Positions 1-19,575 of a stretch of 31,484 nt of DNA are shown here, piece after piece. The stretch's first letter is position 1. Each line of letters starts with the position of its first letter. Origin of the DNA: an uncultured Litorilinea sp. (GTDB taxonomy: Bacteria > Chloroflexota > Anaerolineae > Caldilineales > Caldilineaceae); contig CAKZVN010000320.1 in the NCBI GenBank assembly GCA_937922105.1, positions 1 through 31,484 on the forward strand. Reading direction: 5' to 3'. Under the pieces are notes generated by a model. It was not told the DNA's origin and did not search any database. It saw only the letters and a list, made by a program, of their open reading frames with translations. A program made the translations under genes and the position numbers.

Positions 1-16
1 GTCCGCAGTGCGGACA
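1..16. promoter_or_regulatory. Candidate parS palindrome, copy 1 (window starts inside it)
   Basis: GTCCGCAGTGCGGACA at 1-16; bases 1-22 are identical to 1204-1225. Confidence 0.6.
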
Positions 17-103
17 CCTCTCTCCTGTACATCCGATATAATTCGTCGGGTTGCCTGGGCAATGCTTCGCCGTCGCCAGGCGACTAAGAACCTTCCAACA
101 GGT

Positions 104-544
104 TTAGCGCCGCCGGATTTCGTCAAGCAGTTCGGCAGGCAGCAAAATCCGCAGCCCCAGATCTGCGTACACCTGCTCCCGGATTTCGATCATGTGCCTG
201 CGATCTAGGCTGACCAAATAGTCCACCCGGGCCTTAAGCGCGGTGGCAAAGTGGGGCGCATCCTTGAAGGCCGTATGGGGCTGCATCTGCAGCACTTCGT
301 CCCGGGTGGGATCCACGATAGGGAAGGGGATGGTCGCCTAGATGGTCTCAAAGGCCGGCAAGGCCTGGGGACGTTTGGCGGCCAGATTCTTCGCCGTCTC
401 CAAGAGCACGAACTTGTTGAGCACCAGGCGCAGTTGCCCACGTTGGGCAAAGTGGATGATCTCCCGGGATGCGCCGCGTGCCGAATCGCTGGCGGCAAAG
501 AGCACGCTGGCGTCGATGAAGACCGCTAGCGTCCCTGGTTCCAT
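104..544 (-). pseudogene. PIN-domain (VapC-like) toxin interrupted by one in-frame TAG
   Basis: ORFs 338..544 (VFIDASVL) and 104..316 (KDAPHFATALKARVDYLVSLDRRH) are in the same frame. They are separated only by TAG at 338-340 and seven sense codons; joined, they form one PIN domain resembling the intact PIN at 18759-19286. Confidence 0.8.
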
Positions 545-828
545 TGCTCTTCGCTGAGACCGTATTCCTGTTCGATGAGTTCACCGCGAATCTCACGGCC
601 CGCTTCGATCCACTCTTCCAGGGTGATGCCCTTCTCCTTGAGCAGTTCGCCCATCTTGTCCAGCGCGTCCGCGGCCACCATCTCCTGCGGGCTGATGAGA
701 ATGCCGCGCTCGGTCTCCACGAAGGCGATGAGATCGCCCGGCGCTAAGCCCAGCTTTTGGCGGATTTCCTGGGGAATGGTCACCTGCCCCCGTTCCTGTA
801 GGCGCGAGACCTTGAGTTTTGTCGTCAT
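526..828 (-). CDS. AbrB/MazE/SpoVT-family antitoxin
   Basis: MTTKLKVSRLQERGQVTIPQEIRQKLGLAPGD is a typical swapped-hairpin AbrB motif; the gene overlaps the PIN start. Start taken at ATG 828. Confidence 0.88.
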   Translation of the reverse strand: MTTKLKVSRLQERGQVTIPQEIRQKLGLAPGDLIAFVETERGILISPQEMVAADALDKMGELLKEKGITLEEWIEAGREIRGELIEQEYGLSEEQWNQGR

Positions 829-870
829 ATCCTCGGCTCCCTGAATCATACTGTCATACTTCATGAATCC

Positions 871-879
871 ATTATAGCA
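871..879 (-). promoter_or_regulatory. Extended -10 promoter of the AbrB-PIN operon
   Basis: Minus strand reads TGCTATAAT (TGn-TATAAT) about 45 bp upstream of the abrB start. Confidence 0.6.
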
Positions 880-1038
880 GGGAACTAGGCCGGATGGAAG
901 CGGATCGGCGCGGGCATGGGCAGACAAGGGGGGAAGCAACATGCGCCCGCCTGCCATAGCAGGAAGAACGCCAGGACCTACCCAAGAGATTTTGGGGGAC
1001 ATGGCGACCCGGTGCGGTCCAGGCCGCCTGGCGACAGG

Positions 1039-1932
1039 CTAGGCCTTCCGCTCCAAATCCGCCAAGCGCCGACCGGCCTCCTCGATGATCCGGCGCAGCA
1101 GGCGAATCGCCTCGTCCTTGGCTTGGGGCTCGACCTGGGTGAGTTGGGGCTGTTGCAGGGAACGATAGATGCGCTGCATGGCCGCCACACCGCCCGTCCG
1201 GCTGTCCGCAGTGCGGACACCTCTCACCAGTGATTGCGGGGAGGGTGCAGCGTTTTCGGCCTGGCGGGCTGCGATCAGTTGGTCCCGGTCGAGATGACCC
1301 GCGATCACCTTCTCAATGAAAAGGCGCCGGATATGAGGGTCCTCGATCTTGGCCAACTCCTCGGCCGTGCGCACGGGGATGTCGGCAGTGCGGACAGCTT
1401 CCTCCAGATCGGGATAGCGCACAATGCTGAGCAACGTGCCCACATAGCTGCTGCTCTTGCCGATGCGCGTGGCGATCTGGCGAATGCTGTAGCCCATCTC
1501 CTGCTGCAGACGCAGATAGCCGCGCGCCTCTTCCACAGGGTGGAGGTCCTCGCGCAGCACATTCTCGGTGAGGGCAATCTCCATCATCTGCTGATCGGAG
1601 AGGTCCCGCACCTGGACCGGAATCGCCGTCAAACCGGCGAGGTGGGCCGCGCGTAACCGGCGTTCGCCGTAGGCCAACTGGTAGCTGCGCCCCTTGCGGC
1701 GCACCAGCAGATGCCCATAGAAGCCATGCGCGCGCAGGGAGGCGGCCAGTTCCGCCACACTCTGGTCGTCGAAATGCCGGCGGGGCTGAAAGGGGTTGGG
1801 GCGAATCTGGGCGATGGGAATCTCGCGCACGTCCAGCTCGGTGGTGTCGCCGCCGATGCGATCCAGGATGCCGCCGGCATCCAACGTCGCCTGGGCGGTT
1901 GCGTCGGTGAGTTGGGCGCGCTTACGCGTCAT
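1039..1932 (-). CDS. parB: ParB/Spo0J-family partition protein
   Basis: IRPNPFQPRR box I, GERRLRA arginine patch (box II), ENVLREDL, HTH YSIRQIATRIGKSSSYV; start at ATG 1932 overlaps the parA stop. Confidence 0.95.
   Translation of the reverse strand: MTRKRAQLTDATAQATLDAGGILDRIGGDTTELDVREIPIAQIRPNPFQPRRHFDDQSVAELAASLRAHGFYGHLLVRRKGRSYQLAYGERRLRAAHLAGLTAIPVQVRDLSDQQMMEIALTENVLREDLHPVEEARGYLRLQQEMGYSIRQIATRIGKSSSYVGTLLSIVRYPDLEEAVRTADIPVRTAEELAKIEDPHIRRLFIEKVIAGHLDRDQLIAARQAENAAPSPQSLVRGVRTADSRTGGVAAMQRIYRSLQQPQLTQVEPQAKDEAIRLLRRIIEEAGRRLADLERKA
1203..1219. promoter_or_regulatory. Candidate parS palindrome, copy 2 (inside parB)
   Basis: Perfect TGTCCGCA-G-TGCGGACA; encodes VRTAD in ParB. Confidence 0.65.
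1380..1396. promoter_or_regulatory. Candidate parS palindrome, copy 3 (one mismatch, inside parB)
   Basis: TGTCGGCAGTGCGGACA; again encodes VRTAD. Confidence 0.55.
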
Positions 1933-2707
1933 GGTGCAAGACCTCTCTGGCCAAGGCCCGATAGGCTTCGGCCACGTTGCTGTCGCTGGCGTAGGTGAGA
2001 ATACTCTCACCGGCGATGGGCGCTTCCTTGAGGCGGACGTTGAGCTTGATGACCGATTTGTAGATATGCACCCGATTGGCCAGCACCTTGTCCACCGACG
2101 CCAGGACCTCGCGGGCATGGAGCGTGCGCGTGTCGGCCATGGTGGCGAAGAGGCCGGCGATCTTCAGTTCCCGGTTGATCTTGCGCTGCACGGTGGCGAT
2201 GGTCTTCATGAGCAGGTTGACGCCTTTGAGGGCCAGATAGTCGGCCTGGAGCGGGATCATGACCTCGCCGGCGGCGGCCAGCGCGTTGACCGTGAGCAGC
2301 CCCAGGCTGGGCGGACAGTCGATGAGGATGAAGTCGTAACGCTCCTTCACGGAGGCCAGAATCTCGCGCAAGATCATCTCGCCCATGGTCGCCTTGTTGA
2401 GATCTAGTTCGGCCGCCGAAAGCTCGATATTGGACGGCGCCAGGTCTACCCCGGCTGCCGTTGCACGGATCACGTCGGTCAAGGCTGGATGCTCTGCATC
2501 GGCGATGACAGCGCAGATCACGCTGTAGATGGTCTCTTGGAGGCTTTCCGGGTCGATGCCCACCGACATGGTCAAAGAGGCCTGGGGATCCAAGTCGATG
2601 AGCAACACCCGGTGGCCCTGTTCTTGCAGGGCCGCCCCCAGATTGAGCGTGCTGGTTGACTTGCCTACGCCGCCCTTTTGATTGGCAAGCGCAATAATGC
2701 GCGGCAT
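1922..2707 (-). CDS. parA: ParA/Soj-family ATPase without N-terminal HTH
   Basis: MPRIIALANQKGGVGKST (deviant Walker A), LLIDLDPQASLT, DFILIDCPPSLG (Walker B); RBS AGGAG upstream of ATG 2707. Confidence 0.96.
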   Translation of the reverse strand: MPRIIALANQKGGVGKSTSTLNLGAALQEQGHRVLLIDLDPQASLTMSVGIDPESLQETIYSVICAVIADAEHPALTDVIRATAAGVDLAPSNIELSAAELDLNKATMGEMILREILASVKERYDFILIDCPPSLGLLTVNALAAAGEVMIPLQADYLALKGVNLLMKTIATVQRKINRELKIAGLFATMADTRTLHAREVLASVDKVLANRVHIYKSVIKLNVRLKEAPIAGESILTYASDSNVAEAYRALAREVLHHDA

Positions 2708-2723
2708 ATTTTTCTCCTGCGAG

Positions 2724-2740
2724 TGTCCGCAGTGCGGACA
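2724..2740. promoter_or_regulatory. Candidate parS/operator palindrome, copy 4 (just upstream of the parA RBS)
   Basis: Perfect TGTCCGCAGTGCGGACA about 17 bp upstream of the parA ATG. Confidence 0.7.
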
Positions 2741-2808
2741 GTTACCACTCCATGCTATACGCGCCGTAGAGAGACTCAAAACTGCATGGATGGTGGTCGG
2801 TTGACGGT

Positions 2809-3957
2809 CTAGACGGCGATATCCGGCATGGTTGCCGGCGCCGCCTCCTCAACCAAGAAGCGCAGTCCGATCTCTCCCGTCTTCAACCCCTCAAAGGCCG
2901 GCGCATCGCGACAGAGGAACTTCACCTCGCGTTGGATGGCCGTGCGGATGCCCGGATGGGTCAACTGGCGTTCCATCCAGACGTCGTTGCCCACTTCCTC
3001 CGCTTGGGCGCGCGCGCGGCTGTCCGGGTCCAAGTAACCGTCGGGGGCGCCATAATCCTCCTCAATCGCCTTGCGCAACCAACCACGCGGGTTTTTGATG
3101 CGATCCGGATGCACTTCTTCCAGAAAGTCCAGAAAGTCCAGTTTTTCGCGGATACGGGCGTGGCCAAACTGGTCGACCAGTTGGCGTGCAACGCGTTTAC
3201 CCAATCCCCGTTCTATCAAAGCAACAACAGCGTCGTCCTCGGGGATGGGTGGCGCTTCGTTTTGCGGCGATGCTGCGCGCATTGTTCGGTGGTTGTTGTT
3301 ATGGGTATTGTTGCTTTGTTGTTGTTCGATCGGTAAATTACCAGACCCCCCCGGTAAATTACCAGACCCCCTTCGGTAATTTACCGAACCCCCCTCTTGC
3401 TGTGGGGCGGGGGCTGCTTCCGGCTGTGCCACGCGGGCCGGACGACGAGTCGCCTTGAGGTTATCCAGATTTGTGCGGCAGCGTTCCACCAGTTCGGCAT
3501 GTTTCTGTTGCAGCAGGGGCGGCAGGGTAGCGAGCTGGTCTAGGGTCAATAGCTTGGGGGTGAGGACGACGTCGAATTTATAGCGCATATCCGGCCCTTC
3601 GCCCTCCTCGCGCGCAAAGAGCAGTTCATGTTGCTGCAGAATCTCGATCAGGCCCGGGTAGGTATAGGTTTTGCCGTGCACCACCTTTTGGTAGCCGGTG
3701 AGGACGCGTCGCTCTTTGATGCCCAGGATGGCGGCCAGGAGGTTGATTGAAGGCCAACAGGTACCCGCCTTTTGGTCCTTGTCGGCGTGGCAGAAGCTGC
3801 GTAGCACCTCGTACAGCCCCCAGGCGTCGTTGCCGACCAGGGCGCGCCAGTAGGTGCTTTCGTAATTGGACAGAATTTGGAAGCCTGCCCGGAGAGGATC
3901 GGTGACGACGCCGTTGATGTCAACAGGAATGTCGTCGGGGAAAGTGGTATTCGCCAT
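2809..3957 (-). CDS. Putative replication initiator (N-terminal HTH, low-complexity linker, C-terminal KNPRGWLRKAIEEDY domain)
   Basis: WGLYEVLRSFC...CWPSINLLAAILGI resembles the HTH of phage/plasmid initiators; internal iteron-like repeats; directly upstream of parAB; AGGAG is 9 nt before ATG 3957. Confidence 0.7.
   Translation of the reverse strand: MANTTFPDDIPVDINGVVTDPLRAGFQILSNYESTYWRALVGNDAWGLYEVLRSFCHADKDQKAGTCWPSINLLAAILGIKERRVLTGYQKVVHGKTYTYPGLIEILQQHELLFAREEGEGPDMRYKFDVVLTPKLLTLDQLATLPPLLQQKHAELVERCRTNLDNLKATRRPARVAQPEAAPAPQQEGGSVNYRRGSGNLPGGSGNLPIEQQQSNNTHNNNHRTMRAASPQNEAPPIPEDDAVVALIERGLGKRVARQLVDQFGHARIREKLDFLDFLEEVHPDRIKNPRGWLRKAIEEDYGAPDGYLDPDSRARAQAEEVGNDVWMERQLTHPGIRTAIQREVKFLCRDAPAFEGLKTGEIGLRFLVEEAAPATMPDIAV
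3331..3394. repeat. Three tandem 21-22 bp iteron-like repeats inside rep
   Basis: CGGTAAATTACCAGACCCCCC / CGGTAAATTACCAGACCCCCTT / CGGTAATTTACCGAACCCCCC; each contains the dyad GGTAA-W-TTACC. Confidence 0.85.
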
Positions 3958-3986
3958 GTTGCACATCTCCTGTGGGTCCCAGACGG

Positions 3987-4128
3987 GCCTTGAAGGAGGT
4001 GCAAAGACAGAGGCTTGACATCACCGGTGATCTCGCATATGCTGAAGGTGCCAACCTAAGCCTTGAGATCGCCTTGTTTGGTGATGTCAGTTACTTTTAA
4101 GCCTCTGTTCCTTGCATCTCTTGCAGGC
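3987..4128. other. Long imperfect inverted repeat (rod-like hairpin) upstream of rep
   Basis: Nested pairings: 3994-4004 with 4112-4122, 4007-4016 with 4099-4108, 4016-4025 with 4080-4089, 4026-4034 with 4065-4073. Confidence 0.8.
4015..4043 (+). promoter_or_regulatory. Strong sigma70-type promoter firing away from the rep CDS
   Basis: TTGACA (4015-4020), 17 bp, TATGCT (4038-4043). Confidence 0.75.
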
Positions 4129-4175
4129 GGAACTAGGACGAAGAATAGGCTCCGTTTCGGGGCTTATTCTTTTTT
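4050..4175 (+). ncRNA. Candidate ~125-nt counter-transcribed (antisense) RNA
   Basis: Bounded by the consensus promoter and an intrinsic terminator; no ORF with an RBS; internal hairpin GTTCC-TTGCA-tctct-TGCAG-gc-GGAAC. Ends are approximate. Confidence 0.5.
4141..4175 (+). terminator. Intrinsic terminator
   Basis: 13-bp stem AAGAATAGGCTCC/GGGGCTTATTCTT (two G-U pairs), 5-nt loop, then a T-run. Confidence 0.75.
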
Positions 4176-4253
4176 GATGGATAGAGTGTTTGGATCTGAT
4201 CCGATTTCGTGGACACCGAGTTAAGGGTATACTGCCCGCAAAGGAGGTGTCCG

Positions 4254-4322
4254 ATGAAACGCCAACAGTTTGACCGTCCCGGCGCACGTGCGCCAGGGTC
4301 CGAAAGGACCCCATCCCCGTAA
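4254..4322 (+). CDS. Possible 22-aa small ORF MKRQQFDRPGARAPGSERTPSP
   Basis: AAGGAGGT at 4241-4248, then ATG 4254 to TAA 4322; it overlaps three hairpins, so it may instead be non-coding. Confidence 0.25.
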   Translation: MKRQQFDRPGARAPGSERTPSP

Positions 4323-4362
4323 GGGGATTCAGACCGCCACGACCCTTGTAGACTCTTGACAC

Positions 4363-4396
4363 CGCCCAGGCAGCTCCTAACTGCCTGGGCGTTTTT
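4363..4396 (+). terminator. Intrinsic terminator / REP-like hairpin
   Basis: Perfect 11-bp stem CGCCCAGGCAG/CTGCCTGGGCG, 7-nt loop, followed by TTTTT. Confidence 0.7.
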
Positions 4397-4571
4397 GCGC
4401 GTCTGCCAGAGCCCAATCTCCCAATTCGCTAACCTCACGGGCTGCAGGGCGCTTGCAGGCGGGATGCGCCCTTGCGCGGCGCCCGCGGTGCGCTTGCGGC
4501 GCGGGGTGTGGTAGCATAAGGACCATGAGTCGCCTGTCCTGATGTGCCCGCCGCGCCGGAAGCCGCTGCCC

Positions 4572-6800
4572 ATGTCCCGCGAACCGACCACCGTCGCCAA
4601 ATTGCGCGGCCTGCCCTGGAGCGTCGCCTGCAACGCCACCGCCCAGGTCCACGCGCAGTTGACCTTCTTCGGCGCGCTCTTCATTCTTTTTCTCAACCAG
4701 CTGGGGCTGAGCAAGACCGCCATCGGCTTGGTCCTGGCGCTGGTCCCCTTTTCCTCGGTGTTGGCGCCGCTGGTGGCGCCCTTCACCGCGCGCTACGGCT
4801 ATAAGCGCGTCTTCGTGATCTTCTATGCCGCGCGCAAGGTGGTCACCCTCTTCATCTTGGCAGCGCCGTGGGTGGCGGCGTGGGGCGGCACCACCGCGGT
4901 CTTTTGGTACATTGTGGCGGTGATTGCGTCCTTTGCCGTGGTGCGCACCATCGAAGAGACCGCCTACTTCCCCTGGGTGCAAGAGTTTGTGCCCAACCGC
5001 GTGCGCGGCAAATACACCGCCATGAGCAACATTGCCACCGCCTCCACCGGCTTTCTTGCGGTCTGGGCTGCGGGCCAAGTGCTGGAGCGCAGCAGCGGCT
5101 TGGAGGGCTTCCTGCTGCTCTTTGCCGTGGGCGCGGGCTTCGGCTTTGCCTCGGTGGCGGCGTCGCTCTTCATCCCTGGCGGCGCGGCCCAGCCCGAACT
5201 GCCCACGCGCGGCTGGCGCCAGGTTTTGACCGGCCCCGCGCTGCGCGACGGCAGCTTTCGCCGCTATCTGTTGGGCGTGGCGCTGGTGATCTTGGGCACC
5301 GCGCCGCTGGCGACCTTTCTGCCCCTCTACCTGGAGGAGCGCGCCGGCTTGACCTCGGCCCAGGTGGTGCAGGTGCAGATGGGCAGCCTGTTGGGGATGC
5401 TGGTCTTTTCCTATTTGTGGGGCTGGGCCGCGGACCGCTACGGCTCCAAGCCGGTGATGCAGGCGGGCGGCTGGCTCTTGGTGGGCATGCCGCTGCTCTG
5501 GTGGCTCTTGCCCGGCGGGCAGACGTGGAGCTTAGCCGCCGCGCTGGGCATCGCCTTCCTGCAGGGCAGCGCCACCCTGGGCTGGGGCATCGGGTCGGGT
5601 CGCCTGCTCTTCGTCAGCGTCGTCCCCACCGAACACAAGCTGGACTACATGGCGCTCTACTTCGCCTGGGTGGGGTTGGTCAGCGGGCTGAGCCAATTTG
5701 CCGGCGGCGGCGCGCTGGACGCCGCACGACGTCTGGAGGGCACGCTGTGGGGCGTGGAATTGCACGCCTATGTGCCGCTCTTTGCCGTCTCCGCGCTCTT
5801 GCCCCTGGCTGCCATCGCGCTCTTCGCCCGTGTGCGCGGGGATAGCCCCCTCTCCACGCGCCAAGTCGCCAGCATCTTCCTGCGCGGCAACCCCTTCCTC
5901 GCCATGGGGTCGCTGATTCGCTACTACACCAGCCAGGACGAGGCGCGCACGGTGAGCGCGACCGCCGCGCTGGCTGCGCCGGGCAGCCGCCTCACCGTGG
6001 ATGAGCTGCTGGAAGCCCTGGCAGACCCGCGCTTCAACGTGCGCTTCGAGGCCATCCAGGCCCTGGCGCGGATGCCCGCGGACTCGCGCATCACCGACGC
6101 GCTGGTCAAGACGCTGCACAGCCGCGCGCCTGCGCTCAGCTCCATGGCGGCGTGGGCGCTGGGCCGCGGCGGTCATCACGCCGCCATCCCCGCGCTGCGC
6201 GCCGCGCTGGAAAGCGACTATCGCTCGGTGCAAAGCTACGCCGCGCGCGCACTGGGCACCCTGGGCGATGCCGCCGTGGGCCGCGAGCTGTTGGCCCGCC
6301 TGGAAGCCGCCACCGACGAAGGCTTGAGCTTGGCCTATGCCACCGCGCTGGGGCGCTTGCAAGTCGCCGAGGCGCTGGACCCCATCCTGGCGCGCTTGGC
6401 CGCGGCCGCGGATGAATCGGTGCGCGCCGAGTTGGCCTTGGCCGCGGCGCGACTGGTGGGCGACGAAGCGCCCTACATTCGCCTGGCGCGCAGCAGCGCC
6501 AGCCAGCCGGGCACCAGCTATGCCCAGGCGTTGGCTACGGCCCACAAACAACTGGCGCGGCGGCTGCGCGGCAATGCGCCCCGCTTGGCTCTCTTGACCG
6601 AGTTGGCCGACTGCTTTGCGCGCGAAGAAGTGGACGCGGCCGCGGTGGGCTTGGCCGCGTGGTTGGCGGAGATGCCGCCCGGCCTTTTGGCTGCGCCGGC
6701 AAGCCACGTGGCGCGCGTCGCGGCCGCGCAGCTCCAGCGCCACGCGGCCGCGCGGCCCGAATACCTGCTCCTCGCGCTCCACGCCCTGACGGTGGGCTAG
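4572..6800 (+). CDS. MFS transporter fused to C-terminal HEAT (PBS-lyase-like) repeats
   Basis: About 12 hydrophobic segments with MFS loop motifs (ARYGYKR, AADRYGSKP), then repeats such as LLEALADPRFNVRFEAIQALARM and LRAALESDYRSVQSYAARALGTLG. Confidence 0.85.
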   Translation: MSREPTTVAKLRGLPWSVACNATAQVHAQLTFFGALFILFLNQLGLSKTAIGLVLALVPFSSVLAPLVAPFTARYGYKRVFVIFYAARKVVTLFILAAPWVAAWGGTTAVFWYIVAVIASFAVVRTIEETAYFPWVQEFVPNRVRGKYTAMSNIATASTGFLAVWAAGQVLERSSGLEGFLLLFAVGAGFGFASVAASLFIPGGAAQPELPTRGWRQVLTGPALRDGSFRRYLLGVALVILGTAPLATFLPLYLEERAGLTSAQVVQVQMGSLLGMLVFSYLWGWAADRYGSKPVMQAGGWLLVGMPLLWWLLPGGQTWSLAAALGIAFLQGSATLGWGIGSGRLLFVSVVPTEHKLDYMALYFAWVGLVSGLSQFAGGGALDAARRLEGTLWGVELHAYVPLFAVSALLPLAAIALFARVRGDSPLSTRQVASIFLRGNPFLAMGSLIRYYTSQDEARTVSATAALAAPGSRLTVDELLEALADPRFNVRFEAIQALARMPADSRITDALVKTLHSRAPALSSMAAWALGRGGHHAAIPALRAALESDYRSVQSYAARALGTLGDAAVGRELLARLEAATDEGLSLAYATALGRLQVAEALDPILARLAAAADESVRAELALAAARLVGDEAPYIRLARSSASQPGTSYAQALATAHKQLARRLRGNAPRLALLTELADCFAREEVDAAAVGLAAWLAEMPPGLLAAPASHVARVAAAQLQRHAAARPEYLLLALHALTVG

Positions 6801-6929
6801 GGTGCTGGCGGCTTGGTGTCTCCATGCACTCCAGCCGTGCTCAAACGATGACTTTCGTCATCGCCGAGCGCCGCGGCTGCAACTGCGCCAAACTCGTTGG
6901 GCGCCCTCTTTTTTGGCGCGCGAAGCCCC

Positions 6930-6958
6930 TTGACGCGCGCCCTGGCCCGTGTTACGCT
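6930..6958 (+). promoter_or_regulatory. Sigma70-type promoter of the DUF4157 gene
   Basis: TTGACG, 17 bp, TACGCT preceded by TG (extended -10). Confidence 0.65.
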
Positions 6959-7106
6959 TATGGGCATTGACTCCGACTTCAGCGGAGCGCCGTGCTCGTT
7001 GCCGGTGCCTGCGCAGGTTGTCTTACTCCCCATCCGCTGTCTGCCTGCTGCCTGTGCCGCGTTCACCCGGGGCCGGGCCGCCTCTCTGTCCAGGAGCTGT
7101 GCGCGC

Positions 7107-9281
7107 ATGAGCCAGAAAGCCTCCACACCGACCGCTGCCCCCCACCAACCCGCGGCCCAACCCGGCACGCAGAGCGCCGGGCAAGTTGCCCACGCCGCGC
7201 CCCTGCCGGCGGCGGTCCACCAACTGGCAGCCGCTGGCCGCGCGCCCAGCGCGCGCGATGTGCTCTATTTGCAACGAGCCGCGGGCAACCGGGCCGTGAC
7301 GCGGCTATTGGCCCCACGGCGGGACGCGGTCGTGCAGGCCAAGCTCACCGTCGGCCCGGCAGACGACCGCTATGAACGCGAAGCGGAGCGCGTCGCCGAT
7401 ACGGTCACCCGCGCCATCCAGCGCCGCGCCACGCCCGCCGCGCCGGCGGAGGAAGCCGCGCCTTCCCCCCTGGGCGGCGCGCTCCAGCGCGCGGCGGAAG
7501 GCGGGGTGGGCTTGGCGGGGGGCGCGCTCACGCCGGCGGTGGAGCAGGAGATTCAGCGAGCGCGCGGTGGCGGGCGCCCATTGGCAGCCGGCGTGCGCCG
7601 CCAAATGGAACAGCAGATGGCGGCGGATTTCAGCGGCGTCAAAGTGCACACCAACCGCGAGGCCGACCGCCTGAGCCGCACCATCCAAGCCCGCGCCTTC
7701 ACCACCGGGCAAGACATCTTCTTTCGCAGCGGCGCCTATCAACCCAACAGCCGTGGGGGCCAACATCTCTTGGCCCACGAATTGACCCACGTGGTGCAAC
7801 AAAACGGCCCCAAAGTCGCGCGCAAAACGGCCCCCGCCGTCGCCCAACGCACAGAGGACGGGGTGGTGCAGCGCGCCATCGGCTTCGAGTTCCAGACCCG
7901 CTGGGGCATCGTCAAAAATGTGCCCGACACCCCCCAGAAAAAAGGGGTGGGGACGGCGCTCAAGAACTTTGGGCGCGGGGTGAAGAACTTTTTCACCAAA
8001 AAGCCGCGCCCGCCCGCCGGCCCGCGCGAAGGCTATATCCCGCCCCAGCCGGGCCGCAAGCACGAGCGCTTTCGCAAGGCCCACGACCATCTGACCGACG
8101 GACACATCAAGCTCTCCACCGACGACAGCAGCAACGCGGTGGGCGCCGAAATCGAATGGGTGATTGACCCGCCCCTGCCGGACGACATCAAGCCCGCGGA
8201 GTTGGACGACGTGATCATGAGCTTGATGATGCACGTGGCCCAACTCTACGCCTTCAAGGACCGCGACTCCTTCTTCCTCTCCGAAGCCACCGGCAACCCG
8301 GCCCACGCCGAGATCGAGATCCAGCCCGGCATCAAGAGCAACGGGGCGCGGGATATGTCCGCCGCGGCCCAGATCACCGCCGGCATCAAATTCAACCAAC
8401 TGTGGGACCTCTTCCAGGATGTGGCGCGCAACAACCGCGTCAGCGACCCCGAACGCCAACAGGGGGTGGGCCACTTCAAAGGCAGCGCCGCCGCCATGAC
8501 CATGGTCAATGCCGTCATCAAGTCCAAGGTGGAAGGCAGCAACGAACTGAAGGCGCTCTTGGCCTTCATCGTGCGCTACGCCCTCATGAACAAGGAATAC
8601 TCCGCCAAGGACAAACAGGTCATGACCAGCAACGGCAAGGACGACTACGACCTCGCCGCCGACTACGCCAAAGTCAACACCCAATTCCTGGCGCGCACCG
8701 ACTTCGCCACCATGTTCGACATGTTGCCGCTGGAAGAGCGGCGCAAATACGGCGGGCGCAAACATTCGGAAGACGGCAATACCGACAACTCGGCAGCCTT
8801 CGTCGCCCTGGTGGACCAGGTGCTGCGCGAGGCCTCCCCCACCCCCATGAACCTGGACGACCCGGTCTACGGTCGCGGCATCAAGGGCGACAAAGCCACG
8901 CGCAGCGTGATCTACTTCCCCCTGACGCGCCGCGACTGGCTCGCCAGCATGGCGAACGGCGAAGACAAACTCAGCGGCGCCTCCGCCTATGCCCAACAAC
9001 AGGGCTACGCCGAACATCTGGAGAGCATGGGCAACATCAACAAAAAGGCGGGCAAGCTGGACAAGGTGAGCAGCGACCTGCCCGGCAAACGGACCGGCGT
9101 CATCATCGAATTCCGCAACAACACCGAGCCGCAAGCCCCCGCCAAGTGGGTGGACTACATCCGCCAGTCCGTGGCGTACATCCAGGAACTCAACGCCCGC
9201 AAGTCCATGACGGACGTGCAGGATTGGAAACTGGTGGAGAACAGCCAAAAGGCGCGCAGCATGAACTTCTGGGGCCGCTAG
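7107..9281 (+). CDS. eCIS core domain (DUF4157) protein with uncharacterised C-terminal domain
   Basis: VQAKLTVGPADDRYEREAERVAD, DFSGVKVHT, ARAFTTGQDIFF and LLAHELTHVVQQ are hallmark DUF4157 motifs; AGGAG RBS 10 nt before ATG 7107. Confidence 0.9.
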   Translation: MSQKASTPTAAPHQPAAQPGTQSAGQVAHAAPLPAAVHQLAAAGRAPSARDVLYLQRAAGNRAVTRLLAPRRDAVVQAKLTVGPADDRYEREAERVADTVTRAIQRRATPAAPAEEAAPSPLGGALQRAAEGGVGLAGGALTPAVEQEIQRARGGGRPLAAGVRRQMEQQMAADFSGVKVHTNREADRLSRTIQARAFTTGQDIFFRSGAYQPNSRGGQHLLAHELTHVVQQNGPKVARKTAPAVAQRTEDGVVQRAIGFEFQTRWGIVKNVPDTPQKKGVGTALKNFGRGVKNFFTKKPRPPAGPREGYIPPQPGRKHERFRKAHDHLTDGHIKLSTDDSSNAVGAEIEWVIDPPLPDDIKPAELDDVIMSLMMHVAQLYAFKDRDSFFLSEATGNPAHAEIEIQPGIKSNGARDMSAAAQITAGIKFNQLWDLFQDVARNNRVSDPERQQGVGHFKGSAAAMTMVNAVIKSKVEGSNELKALLAFIVRYALMNKEYSAKDKQVMTSNGKDDYDLAADYAKVNTQFLARTDFATMFDMLPLEERRKYGGRKHSEDGNTDNSAAFVALVDQVLREASPTPMNLDDPVYGRGIKGDKATRSVIYFPLTRRDWLASMANGEDKLSGASAYAQQQGYAEHLESMGNINKKAGKLDKVSSDLPGKRTGVIIEFRNNTEPQAPAKWVDYIRQSVAYIQELNARKSMTDVQDWKLVENSQKARSMNFWGR

Positions 9282-9398
9282 GCCCTGTCCGCAAGATCGC
9301 AACACCGCCCCCGCGTCGAGCACGGCGAAGGGTCCCGGCGGACACCCCGCCGGCTCGCCCTGAGTGGAGAACCCTCCGCCGGCAATGCCCCCTCCTGG

Positions 9399-9428
9399 TT
9401 GACAAGCCGCCAGCCCAGGCCGTATGAT
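9399..9428 (+). promoter_or_regulatory. Sigma70-type promoter
   Basis: TTGACA, 18 bp, TATGAT upstream of ORF 9521. Confidence 0.6.
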
Positions 9429-9520
9429 ACGCTGCGGCGCGCATAGGAATGTCTCTTTGCAATCGCGCTGCCTGTCCGCCCTAGTTTCCATCCTACTACC
9501 CGGAAAGAGAGACTTGATCT

Positions 9521-10702
9521 ATGCGCAACCGCTCGTTGACTGTGTTGCACCGCGCGGTCTGGATGCTGCTGTTGGCTGTGGCGCCGCTTCTATCCATGGT
9601 GGCGCGACCTCTCCCCCTCTGGGCAGCCTCGCCTGCCCAGGTCCCGCCCACCCAGGGCGCGGCTCAGGCGCCCGCCGAGGAGAGCGCCGCGGTCACCCTC
9701 TTGGCCTATTTCGAGTCCGATGTGCTGGAGACCGCCATCGCCGATCTGGTCACCACCCTGGCGTTCTTCGCTGACGGCTCGTTTGAATTGACGATCATCT
9801 TCCCCGACATCGAGACCACGCTGACCCTCACCGGAACCTATGCGGAAAGCGAGGCGGGCGTCTTGCTCACCGCGCTCACCATGGAGGGGGAGACGCTGGA
9901 CGAAGTCATCGAGTTGGAGCTGCTCTGGGATGCCGACGACACCCTGGTCTTGGTGGGCGGTTTCGGCGACGAACTCTACGCCGACGACATCATTTTCTAT
10001 GCCGCGGACTCGGCTGCCTACGGCAGCACCGCGGACGGCGCAACCGTCGAAATCCCCGTGGGCGGTGTTTACCTCTCGAGCCTGATCACCAACGACGACG
10101 GCGCGCAGGTGCTGTATGTGCTCAACCTCGTGGAGGACGGCAGCGCCAGCCTCTCCAGCGACTATCTCGACCTGCAGGCGCCCAGCTTTGAGCTGGGCGC
10201 CTGGCGCGTGGAGTGGAGCGAGGAGGGCGAAGGCGTGGTGACGCTGGAATTCACCGGCACGCCTGAGGAGGAGTATGAGGACCCCATCGTCGTGGCGTTG
10301 CAGGTGGGCGAAACCGGCGAACTCACCGTCGGGACGGTCACCCTCTATCCGCTGTCCCGCTTTTCCTTGACGCCGGTGGTGGAAGAAGCCGCGGTCGAAA
10401 TCCTCGCCACCTATGTGACCGAGATCGTGGGCGAGGACGAAGAGACGCTGCGCCTCTTCTTGGCCCTGGCTGCCGACGGCTCCTTCACCCTCACGGACGA
10501 AGAGGAGACCAACACGGTCTATGGTGAGTGGGCACTGGGCGACGAGCGCCTGACCCTGACTCTCTTGGGCGACCAGGAGGGCAACATCCTGGAGCCGCTG
10601 GAGTTGGTCTTCGAGTTCGGCGAGGAAGATGAGCTGATCTTGGTGGAGGCGCCGGCAGACCTCTTCGAAGACGAGGACCTGATCTTCTACCCGCTGGAGT
10701 AA
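9521..10702 (+). CDS. Secreted, very acidic protein with three NlpE-N/lipocalin-like beta repeats
   Basis: N-terminal signal-like segment; repeat motif LxLxxDGSFxL...GxW/Y occurs three times; codon pattern fits a real gene. Confidence 0.75.
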   Translation: MRNRSLTVLHRAVWMLLLAVAPLLSMVARPLPLWAASPAQVPPTQGAAQAPAEESAAVTLLAYFESDVLETAIADLVTTLAFFADGSFELTIIFPDIETTLTLTGTYAESEAGVLLTALTMEGETLDEVIELELLWDADDTLVLVGGFGDELYADDIIFYAADSAAYGSTADGATVEIPVGGVYLSSLITNDDGAQVLYVLNLVEDGSASLSSDYLDLQAPSFELGAWRVEWSEEGEGVVTLEFTGTPEEEYEDPIVVALQVGETGELTVGTVTLYPLSRFSLTPVVEEAAVEILATYVTEIVGEDEETLRLFLALAADGSFTLTDEEETNTVYGEWALGDERLTLTLLGDQEGNILEPLELVFEFGEEDELILVEAPADLFEDEDLIFYPLE

Positions 10703-10735
10703 AGCGCCGCCAGGTGTCGCCTGGGCTGCATGACC

Positions 10736-10763
10736 GCGCCGGGGGGCGACTGCCCCCCGGCGC
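10736..10763. terminator. GC-rich hairpin between convergent genes
   Basis: 12-bp perfect stem GCGCCGGGGGGC/GCCCCCCGGCGC, loop GACT; no T-run. Confidence 0.45.
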
Positions 10764-10870
10764 AAGTGGTTGTTCGGCCCGTCCACCCTCAAACCACGCG
10801 CGCCAAAGCGTGACGCGCCCGGCGGCCCAAGCCGCTAGCCGGGTTGTGGCGCGCCCTGCATCCCTCGGGG

Positions 10871-10893
10871 AAACCCGAAAAGTTTTCGGGTTT
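10871..10893. repeat. 23-bp AT-rich palindrome
   Basis: AAACCCGAAAA-G-TTTTCGGGTTT. Confidence 0.7.
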
Positions 10894-10960
10894 GGGTGAG
10901 CTGCCACCGGCTCGGCAGCCGAAAGCGGGCGGCGATACGCCCGGCGCAACGGGCGGCGCG

Positions 10961-11995
10961 CTAGGCGGCAAGGCGCACGGTGCGCCCGCTGCGCGCGGCG
11001 GCGATGATGGCGTCGCTCACCTCCACGCTGTGGACCCCCTCCGCGCCCGACGGGGCGAAGTCGGCGCCGCTTTCCACCGCGCGGCTGAAGGCCTCCAACT
11101 CGTTGGCGAAGTTGTCCCACGGCGCATAGTGGAAGGTGCGCGTGGTATGCCCCGCGCCGGCAGGCGGCTCCGGCGTGGTGATCTCCAGATGACCGGTGGG
11201 CGGCATGTTGACCGTCTCGGCGCAGACGATGCGCCCGCGCGTGCCGTAGAGCACCAGATCGTTGCGGCTATAGGGAAAGCGCGCGCTGGAGACCAGCGTC
11301 GCCAAAGCGCCGCCGTCGAAGCGCAGCGTCGCCACGGTGAGCATCTCCAGCGGGCGCGCGGGGCTGGTCTCTTCCATGAGCGCAGTGACTTCCACCACGC
11401 GACGGCCCAGCAAATCCACCAGGATATCAATCACATGCACGCCCATGCCCATGAGGCTGCCCGCGTCGCCCATCAGGGCGGGGTCGCTCTTCCAGGCCGA
11501 GTTGGGAATGGCGGGCGGCGTGAAGGCAAACAGCCCATACTGACCGCCGGCATAGACGATGTCGCCGATTTCACCGCTTCGGATGAGACGGCGCGCGGCT
11601 TGGTGGGCGGGGTGGTGGCGCAGATGAAAGGCGACGCCCAGGCGGACGCCCGCGGCGGCGCAGGCCGCGACCATGGCACGTGCAGCCGCGGCAGCGGTCG
11701 CCATGGGCTTTTCCACCAACACATGCTTGCCCGCCGCCGCGGCTGCCAGCGTATGGTCGGCGTGCAGGCGGTTGGGCGTGGCAATGAAGACCGCGTCCAC
11801 CGCGGGGTCCTGCCACAACTCGGCGAGGGTGGCGTAGGCGCGCGGCACGCCGTGCCGCTGGGCCAAGGCCTGGGCATTGGCGTGGGTTTGGCTCCAGACG
11901 CCCACCAGCTCGCTGCTGGGCGAGAGGGCAAAGGCGGGGGCGATGCGAAGCTGCGGGTGGCGCCCCGCGCCGATCAGCGCCCAGCGAACCGTCAT
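10961..11995 (-). CDS. Gfo/Idh/MocA-family oxidoreductase
   Basis: WALIGAG Rossmann start, DAVFIATPNRLH, KHVLVEKPMA, MGVHVID. Confidence 0.93.
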   Translation of the reverse strand: MTVRWALIGAGRHPQLRIAPAFALSPSSELVGVWSQTHANAQALAQRHGVPRAYATLAELWQDPAVDAVFIATPNRLHADHTLAAAAAGKHVLVEKPMATAAAAARAMVAACAAAGVRLGVAFHLRHHPAHQAARRLIRSGEIGDIVYAGGQYGLFAFTPPAIPNSAWKSDPALMGDAGSLMGMGVHVIDILVDLLGRRVVEVTALMEETSPARPLEMLTVATLRFDGGALATLVSSARFPYSRNDLVLYGTRGRIVCAETVNMPPTGHLEITTPEPPAGAGHTTRTFHYAPWDNFANELEAFSRAVESGADFAPSGAEGVHSVEVSDAIIAAARSGRTVRLAA

Positions 11996-17658: not shown

Positions 17659-17788
17659 GGGTAAACACTCCGTGGCAAGGGGCCGGTAGGCAACGCCCCC
17701 GGCAAGCGGGCGCGCCGCCTAGAATACCACAAAAAACGCCGCGCCCCCACTTCCTCGGCGCAGGAGCCTGGCCGCTCTTCGCGCGTGG

Positions 17789-18721
17789 TCACCCGGTGGG
17801 GGATGCGACGGCCCAGGGCGCGAGCAGCGCGGCGAGTGCGGCTTCGTGGTCGGGCGTGGGGTCCTGCAAGGGCGGGCGCACGCCGCCCACCGGCTCGCCC
17901 AGCAGCCGCAGCGCGGCCTTGACCAGCGCAATGCCGTAGCCGGGGACCAGCCCGCGCAGCGCGGTGTAGGGGCGGAAGAATTGCGCCTGGAGCCGCGCCA
18001 CCGTGGCGTCGTCCTGCGCGACCAGCGCGTGGTAATAGGCCCACGCCAACGCGGGCAGAAAATCCACCACGCTCGACGAATAGGCCCCAATGCCCGCCGC
18101 AAAGTAGCCCGGCGCATACATCTCCGCCGAGGGCATGCCGTTGATGAGGAGCAGGCGATCGGGCGCCAGGCTGCGCACGCGCTCCAGGCTGGGCAGGTTG
18201 CCGTGCCCGTCCTTGACGCCGATCACGTTGGGGATCTCGGCCAAGCGCAGGAGCGTCTCTTCGGCGAAGACCGCGTTGTCGCGGTGATAGACGATCACGC
18301 CGATGCCCACTGCGCGCGCCACCGCGCTCACATGCGCGAGCAGCCCGGCCTGGGGCGCGGGGGTGAGATAGGGCGGGAAGAGCAAGAGTGCGTCCGCGCC
18401 GGCGCGTTCGGCGGCGACCGCGGCCTCCACCGCCAGGGGCGTGCCGTGTCCCACGCCCGCTACCAGCGGCACGCGGCCCTGCAACTCCGCGGCCGCGGCC
18501 TGGATGAGCGCGCCACATTCGGTGGGGTGGAGCGAGAAGAACTCGCCCGCGCCGCACGCCACGAAGCAGCCCGCGGGCCGGCTGGGACCGGCGCACAGGC
18601 TCGCGGCGACGCGACGCCGGAACGCGTCCAAGTCCGGCGCGCCCGTGGCGTCGAAGGGGGTGCAGACAAAGGCTTGCAGTCCGTTGAGGCTGCGGCGCAA
18701 GGTCCCAAAGTCGACGGGCAT
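17789..18721 (-). CDS. kdgD: 5-dehydro-4-deoxyglucarate dehydratase (KdgD-like, DapA family)
   Basis: GAGEFFSL, LLFPPYL, VIVYHRDNA, IGVKDG (Schiff-base Lys), NGMPSAE, YSSSV, VRPPL. Confidence 0.8.
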   Translation of the reverse strand: MPVDFGTLRRSLNGLQAFVCTPFDATGAPDLDAFRRRVAASLCAGPSRPAGCFVACGAGEFFSLHPTECGALIQAAAAELQGRVPLVAGVGHGTPLAVEAAVAAERAGADALLLFPPYLTPAPQAGLLAHVSAVARAVGIGVIVYHRDNAVFAEETLLRLAEIPNVIGVKDGHGNLPSLERVRSLAPDRLLLINGMPSAEMYAPGYFAAGIGAYSSSVVDFLPALAWAYYHALVAQDDATVARLQAQFFRPYTALRGLVPGYGIALVKAALRLLGEPVGGVRPPLQDPTPDHEAALAALLAPWAVASPTG

Positions 18722-18758
18722 GGCAAGTCGGCCTTTCCGGGTGAGAGAAGTGTGTAGG

Positions 18759-19286
18759 CTAGGAGTGGCCCGGCGCAGCGGAGTCAATCTCCATCCAACT
18801 CCGTTTGCGCACCGCATCCAGCGCACGGCTCGACCATCCCATATGGACACGTAAAAATATCCCGGATAGTAGGACAGGGAGCCGTCGGTGCAGCTCGGCC
18901 GTGGCGGGGGTGTGCTGGGTAAAGTGCTTGTCCTCAGAGACGAAGCAATCTACCTGGGCCTGGATAGCCGCCAGAGCGATGGGTATGTCATTGCGGTCGC
19001 GCAGGAGAGTTTGATGAGCCATCACGTCCTGTGGAGTGGGATCGCGCTGCAATTCATAGGGCCACCGCAGCAAGAAATCGTCTATGCGTGCCAGAAAGTT
19101 GGGAAACTTGCGGGTGATGATACGCCGAGATTCGGCTACGATCACCGGCGCCAACACCAGCCGGAAATCTTCGCGCAGCGCGTGGCGCAGCACCTCGTAG
19201 GGCCAGCGCGGCCAGACCAACCCCGCCACCAGCACGCTGGTATCCACCATGACACGCAGTCTTCTAGGCGGCGCTGCCGGGATCAT
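18759..19286 (-). CDS. PIN-domain (VapC-like) toxin
   Basis: VMVDTSVL, AESRR, DRNDIPIALAAIQAQVDCFVSEDKHF acidic tetrad; overlaps the antitoxin stop. Confidence 0.9.
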   Translation of the reverse strand: MIPAAPPRRLRVMVDTSVLVAGLVWPRWPYEVLRHALREDFRLVLAPVIVAESRRIITRKFPNFLARIDDFLLRWPYELQRDPTPQDVMAHQTLLRDRNDIPIALAAIQAQVDCFVSEDKHFTQHTPATAELHRRLPVLLSGIFLRVHMGWSSRALDAVRKRSWMEIDSAAPGHS

Positions 19287-19575
19287 AACGTTCCGCAAAC
19301 AGTTCCTGGCGGACCTGTCTCAGTTCGTGGAAAAAGTCCTCCTCGCTGAGTTGCGCGTGCTCAGCTTCTCGGCTTAGCTCTCGGTTGGTCTGCTCCAGGT
19401 CGGCCAGATTCTGTTGGCGGCGCAAGGCCTGATACTCCTGATAGGAAAGCAACACCGCCACCGGAAACCCATCCCGCTCCACCACCAGATGCTCATCCGA
19501 GCTGTAGACTCGGCGCAAGAGCTTGCCGAAGGTTCTGTGCCCCTCGGAAGCTCGGATGACGATTTGTTTTGCCAT
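19264..19575 (-). CDS. Phd/YefM-family antitoxin
   Basis: IRASEGHRTFGKLLRRV...LVVERDGFPVAVLLSYQEY. Confidence 0.9.
   Translation of the reverse strand: MAKQIVIRASEGHRTFGKLLRRVYSSDEHLVVERDGFPVAVLLSYQEYQALRRQQNLADLEQTNRELSREAEHAQLSEEDFFHELRQVRQELFAERYDPGSAA

Follow-up and report, generated by a model that had tools for sequence, protein, structure and literature searches.

The first 4,190 nt of the window, which is the entire 31,484-nt contig C320 of a Litorilinea metagenome-assembled genome (MAG; 374 contigs, 3.06 Mb, about 70% completeness), carry five co-directional genes on the minus strand: rep, parA, parB, a MazE/AbrB antitoxin gene and a PIN-domain gene. We place at roughly 0.55 the probability that this block represents the replication, partition and addiction core of a Caldilineaceae plasmid-like mobile element, and that the present copy is an inserted, decaying remnant of it. 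The reading is based on a deletion in rep, a premature stop in the PIN gene, the end of homology to a related cassette at 4190, a close relative of the adjoining DNA that lacks the cassette, the integrase-flanked position of homologues and the accessory occurrence of rep. Most likely, this copy has lost most of the putative helicase-recruiting domain of Rep, its toxin and its upstream end, and what connects it to host-like DNA is a piece of a repeated element plus the final repeat of a CRISPR array. A first-pass annotation of the DNA had described a self-contained cassette and the working origin of a megaplasmid or chromid bearing dus, mgtE and sqr. The genes, their strand and their place were confirmed, whereas the PIN gene proved to be interrupted, rep partly deleted and the gene starts in need of correction; the damage to both genes, the repeat-CRISPR join and the cassette-less relative speak against a working origin. 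The combination of rep, par and toxin-antitoxin genes is indeed a plasmid-type core, as judged by Pfam and NCBIfam matches and by the same cassette in a second locus.

This second locus, L013, originates from an unrelated sample, and its cassette is 92-93% identical to that of the window. Gene starts were set by homology to it (rep 3957, parA 2707, parB 1932, mazE 864, PIN 544). The order in L013 is an RHH (ribbon-helix-helix)-like gene, rep, parA, parB, mazE and PIN, and homology at the above level spans window positions 17 to 4194 and then ends. The block is thus not self-contained, since L013 has the RHH-like gene and a fifth copy of a palindrome further upstream, and the window block is truncated at 4190 before reaching them. 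Compared with L013, the rep gene of the window lacks 234 nt (78 codons) in frame, with the junction near 2959-2970, and the deletion is flanked by two imperfect 17-nt direct repeats. The missing residues, equivalent to 331-409 of the closest intact homologue (P0002), include the long helix together with two helices and two strands of a C-terminal domain resembling DnaA domain I. Other short members of the Rep family retain a C-terminal domain. The window rep also contains three candidate iterons, where that of L013 contains four. Downstream, alignment to L013 and translation reveal a CAG to TAG change at window positions 338-340 in the PIN gene, which is otherwise 94.5% identical to the intact 146-aa PIN of L013. 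The latter yields weak PIN and PIN_3 matches and forms an intact antitoxin-toxin pair. A VapBC-type pair (AbrB antitoxin and PIN toxin) with both genes intact is therefore not found in the window; its antitoxin is 99% identical to the L013 copy. A 94-aa gene without a family match lies upstream of rep in L013 (351-635) and between parA and rep in locus L084 (2161-2430), and is absent from the window; it may encode a small centromere-binding or copy-control protein. The features of the block and of its right border are collected in Table 1.

Table 1. Features of the rep-par cassette and its right border (window coordinates)
Feature	Position	Strand	Description
Palindrome copy, candidate parS	1-17		Downstream of PIN; the contig begins inside this copy
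PIN-domain toxin gene, now a pseudogene	104-544	-	TAG at codon 69 of 146
MazE/AbrB (SpoVT) type antitoxin	526-864	-	112 aa, intact; PF04014 3.2e-9, TIGR01439 8e-10
parB	1039-1932	-	297 aa; N-terminal CTP-binding-type domain and helix-turn-helix (HTH)
Two palindrome copies	1204-1218, 1381-1395		Within the 3' half of parB
parA	1922-2707	-	261 aa, small Soj-like Walker ATPase; AAA_31 3.5e-59, CbiA 8e-25
Palindrome copy, candidate parS or par operator	2723-2741		Between the rep stop and the parA start
rep, initiator candidate	2809-3957	-	382 aa from the homologous start (open reading frame 2809-3966, 385 aa)
A-rich tract, candidate unwinding element	3281-3330		Coding strand; adjoins the iterons; encodes QQQSNNTHNNNH
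Candidate iterons	3331-3394		Three tandem 21-22-nt units inside rep, dyad core GGTAA(A/T)TTACC
rep upstream region	3958-4190		Last L013-homologous stretch; ends in a hairpin with T-run (4141-4175)
86-nt fragment of a repeated IS-like element	4191-4276	+	TG start, then ribosome-binding site, ATG, MKRQQFDR
21-nt spacer stub and one 37-nt CRISPR repeat	4277-4334	+	End-repeat variant; matches the repeat of the C174 array
GC-rich hairpin with T-run, terminator-like	4363-4397	+	Host-like genes follow

The right border of the cassette consists of two repeats in succession. The 86-nt fragment is 100% identical to the end of another contig of the MAG (C33, 8044-8129), which continues differently. We take it, short of proof, to be the end of an insertion sequence (IS): PF01527 is absent from the MAG, an exact 31-mer had no match in the genome contigs searched, and no transposase follows the best match in a relative (85% identity). 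The CRISPR repeat next to it is a variant of that in a nine-repeat array on contig C174 (17704-18354; 37-nt repeat), which has a promoter-like leader at the contig end. A contig from a hot-spring run (X3), which shares about 98% identity with window positions 4338-11734, ends exactly at the CRISPR repeat, and the depth of the repeat there (220), with spacers between the copies, indicates an array at that place; the cassette was not found in this run at an identity of at least 90%. The segment 4191-4397 marks a CRISPR array which has been almost entirely lost in this strain. Two other interpretations were discarded. Self-targeting of the cassette by CRISPR gains no support, since neither the eight C174 spacers nor the other spacers seen match it; the C174 spacers match none of the retrieved loci either. 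An interpretation of 4205-4396 as a structured RNA is better replaced by the end of a repeated element followed by a CRISPR repeat.

A join made of repeats raises the question of whether the assembler produced it, such that a cassette from a separate plasmid with a full copy of the repeated element at 4191 was misjoined to a chromosomal 86-nt remnant. Two repeat families and a step in GC content fall at the join, the overall depth is low (about 9x), the element end has a depth of about 33 in run X1 against about 9 in its flanks (about 3.6x), and none of the k=31 contigs listed spans 4220-4301. Against such a chimera, contig C33 carries 98 nt of the repeat before stopping and two MAG contigs share an overlap of 141 nt, which suggests final k values of 99 to 141, exceeding the 86-nt fragment. 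The depth in X1 is also equal across the junction (8.7 versus 9.9-10.1), and a second sample (run X2) contains both of its sides at 100% identity. A chimera is accordingly considered quite unlikely, and the junction is probably real.

The base composition changes together with the gene content. At the first pass the block had seemed by eye less GC-rich than the genes downstream, and this is the case: its GC content (positions 1-4190) is 0.607, versus 0.669 in the remainder and 0.636 +/- 0.018 in the MAG, and GC at third codon positions follows the same trend (0.69-0.80 in the cassette genes, 0.85-0.89 downstream). The 27-kb right part codes for transport and metabolic functions, including MFS-HEAT and eCIS-core proteins, oxidoreductases, an ABC sugar system, a DHDPS-like protein, SQR, DsrC/DsrE, cytochrome c, Dus, MgtE and MgtC. 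No plasmid function appears among its annotated genes, and neither dnaA nor an integrase was found in the window, as had been remarked before. A DNA search of the genus with the right part returned paralogous matches only (64-72% identity), and thus there is no synteny evidence for placing this part on either a chromosome or a plasmid. A scan for promoters and terminators gave nothing exceeding the shuffled background.

The main competitor to the remnant interpretation is the first-pass view itself, namely that the contig belongs to a live low-copy megaplasmid or chromid, which has the cassette for origin and partition and carries 27 kb of metabolic genes as cargo. Several observations favour it or weigh against a remnant. 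The parA, parB and antitoxin genes are all intact; iterons are present, and three of them is a normal number for the Rep family; and the deletion in rep keeps the reading frame. In GC content and tetranucleotide use, the right part also departs somewhat from the MAG, and so need not be the main chromosome. Equal depth on both sides is what would be expected of a one-copy replicon, the two halves co-occur in the second sample, and a separate parAB of chromosomal type is present in the MAG. For the physical link over the 86-nt repeat the assembler has to be trusted, the left end of the contig falls within a palindrome copy, and no integrase or attachment site was seen in the window. The chromid interpretation, in turn, has to accommodate a Rep protein devoid of most of its DnaA-I-like domain, a join to the cargo made of a repeat fragment and a CRISPR end-repeat, a relative about 98% identical in which the cargo lies beside the array without the cassette, and a right part without plasmid functions. 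Circularity, which the first pass had proposed as a plasmid signal, was not observed: neither the window nor any wholly retrieved contig of the family has a terminal overlap. A live megaplasmid or chromid is therefore regarded as unlikely, and the remnant interpretation is preferred.

The distribution of the homologues bears on the same choice. Among named relatives, the Rep family is carried by Litorilinea, Caldilinea, Caldilineaceae and other Chloroflexota MAGs. Only 7 of the 101 genomes from the taxonomic family, and four of the nine from the genus, have a full-length member, so that rep is an accessory gene. A single Rep protein retrieved nothing in the search of genome contigs, for which an alignment query was needed. 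Homologues in integrated elements with integrases, which the first pass itself had said would count against its reading, were found in two cases, both between chromosomal genes. In a Litorilinea MAG of the same genus, an integrase, rep and a NikA-like gene are inserted between a sulfatase gene on one side and dehydrogenases, MFS, queA and msrB on the other. In a long-read Caldilineaceae MAG (G011), an integrase and, further on, rep-parB-parA-FtsK/SpoIIIE are located at about 0.87 Mb of a 2.13-Mb contig, which carries a true dnaA at 1.38 Mb. The latter contig, together with the occurrence in 7 of 101 genomes, led us to reject the idea that the Rep family serves as a chromosomal initiator in place of DnaA. 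Further contexts include Tn3, ISL3, an AAA_25 helicase with primase and integrase, an RPA-type initiator and defence genes. Linkage of rep to parA is frequent, with parA at most 2.5 kb upstream in 8 of 13 metagenome loci and in several others. On one 150-kb metagenome contig (L015), a Rep-family member (17736-19106) is accompanied by an RPA-type (PF10134) initiator in the neighbourhood of Tn3 and BrnT/CopG genes, and this contig looks like a multi-replicon plasmid. Contig C167 of the MAG (L069, 793-3623) carries a row of replication genes. These code for the C-terminal part of DnaB, for a DnaD-like (DnaB_2) protein and for a protein of 479 aa in which two DnaC/IstB-type AAA+ modules stand in tandem.

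The Rep family is not named in any library, and its members belong mostly to Caldilineaceae and other Chloroflexota; the first-pass suspicion of a poorly described replicon family, with an initiator other than RepC, Rep_3 or DnaA, is supported. A word search gave 112 homologues, and an exhaustive profile search gave 221 cluster representatives at E<=1e-30; these proteins are almost never named, and no description of the family was found in the literature. The known plasmid initiators (Rep_3, RepC, RPA, TrfA, RepA_N) gave no match to Rep at E<=0.01 in Pfam and NCBIfam. A PDB sequence search returned noise only, and PLSDB a single weak and partial match, so that known plasmids lend no support. 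A "replication initiator protein A" from a Frigoriglobus plasmid resembles the C-terminal part only (34% identity).

At its N-terminus Rep has a winged helix; a linker encoded by the repeats, a helical middle domain and, at the C-terminus, a domain like DnaA domain I follow. The window protein scores 19.3 bits with HTH_36 (PF13730), below the cut-off of 25, and a homologue (P0101) which aligns over its full length with P0002 (E 2e-39) scores 50.6 bits. About 30 cluster representatives share the whole architecture, while some 190 share only the linker, middle and C-terminal domains behind other N-terminal domains; one of the proteins with an exchanged N-terminus (P0104) has a Phage_rep_O domain and aligns to the family from the linker onward only. 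No Phage_rep_O (PF04492) match was obtained in the window Rep or its close homologues. In the AF2 model of P0002 (pLDDT 75), residues 27-170 form a winged helix with a beta wing, residues 184-243 the disordered linker and residues 248-308 the helical middle domain, after which come a long helix and an alpha/beta C-terminal domain (365-455). The top Foldseek matches of the latter are DnaA domain I (4tps, TM 0.69-0.71; 2wp0) and the DUF721 domain of DciA (7ykm, 8a3v). The first pass had listed a non-initiator fold as a possible objection; the modelled fold, a winged helix combined with a DnaA domain I/DciA-like module, instead fits an initiator. The sequence-based evidence is consistent with this resemblance. 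Intact homologues score 24.3-31.8 bits with DnaA_N (PF11638; cut-off 24.6), several of them passing, although the window Rep, from which most of the domain is deleted, gives no match. In nearly all genomes of the taxonomic family, the profile of the Rep family also picks up one long open reading frame through the DnaA-I domain; the one that was checked is a true DnaA. The neighbours of Rep in the ESM Atlas are Chloroflexota clusters annotated as "DnaA N-terminal domain-containing", Phage_rep_O+DnaA_N clusters and phage HTH_36+DnaA_N clusters.

These phage clusters raise the possibility that the cassette is a replication and partition module of a temperate phage or phage-plasmid whose initiator is of the lambda O kind, comparable to prophages of the P1 or N15 type. 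Weak PHROG matches to "replication initiation" families (4e-5 and below), the related architectures in phages (HTH_36 or DUF7833 with DnaA_N) and the location of an origin within the initiator gene, as in lambda, are in line with such a module. No capsid, terminase, tail or lysis gene was seen in the window or in any inspected homologue context, which hold integrases, a NikA-like protein, FtsK/SpoIIIE, Tn3 and other plasmid initiators, and a phage origin is thus held to be highly improbable.

The internal direct repeats reported for rep are three units of 21-22 nt, and they extend well beyond this copy. The core GGTAAWTTACC occurs three times in the window, each time within 3331-3394, against an expectation of 0.05. 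Tandem units of 20-23 nt, two to four per locus and at the same position of the coding sequence (nt 520-720), are present in 21 of 24 loci (10 of 11 in the first set and 11 of 13 in the metagenome set). In 19 of the 21 repeat-bearing loci each unit contains an 11-13-bp dyad core of the AAWTT type; in the remaining two, the core of L091 is a different dyad and the distant L023 has no evident dyad core. The half-sites co-vary symmetrically between loci, giving rise to the variants GGTAA/TTACC, GACAA/TTGTC, GGCAA/TTGCC, GGGAA/TTCCC, TGGAA/TTCCA, CGGAA/TTCCG and GGTAC/GTACC. Symmetric covariation is the pattern that a dimer-bound site co-evolving with its protein would show. The peptides encoded by the repeats vary freely (GNLP, VNYR, DNLS, TNCQ, GNSN) and lie in a disordered linker, from which it follows that the constraint acts on the DNA. 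With three units in helical phase, the window has the minimum of three tandem repeats expected of iterons. The motif AACAATACCCA and a periodicity of about 14 nt recur in the A-rich tract of other loci of the family.

The anatomy suggests how an intact element might operate. Rep dimers would bind the three or four dyad iterons, two helical turns apart, via the N-terminal winged helix, at sites lying inside rep itself, in the DNA that encodes the disordered linker. Binding would open the adjacent A-rich tract, and the middle and C-terminal domains, the latter of DnaA domain I/DciA-type fold, would bring in the DnaB helicase of the host. ParA and ParB would segregate the element through a private 17-bp palindrome distinct from the host parS, and the MazE-PIN pair would penalise its loss. 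More broadly, and at a little short of even odds, the family may constitute a set of uncharacterised, largely Chloroflexota-specific, self-contained minimal replicons. In these, one gene of about 1.4 kb would both code for the initiator and contain its origin in the manner of lambda O, the C-terminal DnaA-I mimic would recruit the host helicase directly, and exchangeable N-terminal DNA-binding domains and co-varying dyad iterons would set specificity and incompatibility.

The partition genes are those of a type I ParABS system, with a Walker ParA, a ParB with ParB_N and HTH domains (ParB_N 1.1e-26, HTH_ParB 2.7e-13, TIGR00180 2.4e-38) and a GERRLRAA box, and repeated palindromic sites. The palindrome GTCCGCA-G-TGCGGAC (15-17 bp) has exact copies at positions 1, 1204 and 2725 and a copy with one mismatch at 1381, and none elsewhere in the 3.06-Mb MAG. 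L013 has four exact copies at the corresponding places, including one at 2594 equivalent to window 2723-2741, and its fifth copy lies upstream of the extra RHH-like gene. ParB is predicted to bind this palindrome. The MAG also codes for a parA-parB pair of chromosomal type, with ParB_C, amid ordinary genes on contig C280, and has two perfect canonical parS sites on contig C84; the cassette parAB is hence not the only one in the genome, contrary to an objection raised at the first pass. Given that its palindrome is confined to the cassette, the cassette ParABS is an additional, private system.

Three independent assemblies break off at the palindrome that follows PIN: the MAG contig sets out from the first base of this palindrome, the X1 contig from window position 4, and L013 ends about 10 nt short of it. 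This could reflect a long hairpin, a hot spot of recombination or a physical end of the DNA. Two genes of the right part are recorded here for completeness. Positions 6897-9281, in the highest-GC and compositionally most atypical stretch of the contig, code for a 794-aa protein in which an eCIS core domain (4.9e-32) is combined with a long C-terminal part without family assignment, and a Phd/YefM-type antitoxin gene (5e-9) lies at 19264-19575, within the host-like part.

The present analysis carries a caution for the annotation of metagenomes, in that a block of rep, par and toxin-antitoxin genes on a MAG contig does not make that contig a chromid; here the damaged genes, a junction formed by repeats and the homologues in integrated elements point to a remnant. 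A compact initiator with the origin in its own gene, and iterons that co-vary over two dozen loci, offers a directly testable minimal replicon. To our knowledge, there are no characterised plasmids or vectors for Chloroflexota of the Caldilineae/Anaerolineae type, and if the proposal is true, an intact member such as that of L013 could underlie the first replicating vector for Caldilineae or Anaerolineae.

Each part of the cassette can be set beside a known system. DnaA domain I and the DciA domain contact the DnaB helicase or its partners (cf. the titles of PDB entries 8a3v and 4tps). The C-terminal domain of intact Rep members shares their fold (TM 0.68-0.71 to 4tps and 7ykm), yet it is placed at the C-terminus of a non-AAA+ protein and is mostly deleted in the window copy; Rep may thus be a natural example of DnaA domain I reused outside DnaA for helicase recruitment. 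The partition genes resemble type I ParABS systems with a CTP-dependent ParB in the Walker ParA, the ParB_N and HTH domains, the GERRxRA box and the several palindromes around the operon. They differ in their candidate site, a palindrome of 17 bp whose centre is odd, unlike the canonical 16-bp parS on host contig C84, and in that the cassette ParB has no ParB_C match in Pfam. Integrative elements with their own replication gene include actinomycete integrative and conjugative elements (AICEs) such as pSAM2, and small mobilisable islands. The Rep homologues arranged as integrase-rep-NikA-like or integrase...rep-parB-parA-FtsK/SpoIIIE between chromosomal genes are organised like AICE-type elements, although the Rep family is unrelated to theirs and the window shows neither integrase nor attachment site.

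The RepA_N replicons of Firmicutes (pAD1, pCF10, pSK41) possess an N-terminal winged helix, carry origin repeats in the central, poorly conserved part of rep, and have rep linked to par genes. The present family shares the winged helix, the repeats inside rep and the par linkage, but Rep has no PF06970 match, and the phylum, the type of repeat (dyad cores) and the C-terminal domain are different. A further parallel is found in ori-lambda, which lies within the O gene and consists of four inverted-repeat iterons binding O dimers, followed by a 40-bp A+T-rich region (PMC5043065). In both cases the origin, a candidate one in the present family, is located in the initiator gene, with three or four tandem dyad sites and then an A+T-rich stretch (PMC5043065), and the repeats encode a linker that connects the DNA-binding domain at the N-terminus with a recruitment domain at the C-terminus. 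Unlike in lambda O, the N-terminal domain of Rep has no match to Phage_rep_O, which is matched only by domain-swapped relatives, and no P-like loader gene lies beside rep. The C-terminal part resembles DnaA domain I/DciA rather than the domain of O that binds lambda P, and the hosts of the family are plasmid-like and integrative elements of Chloroflexota rather than phages.

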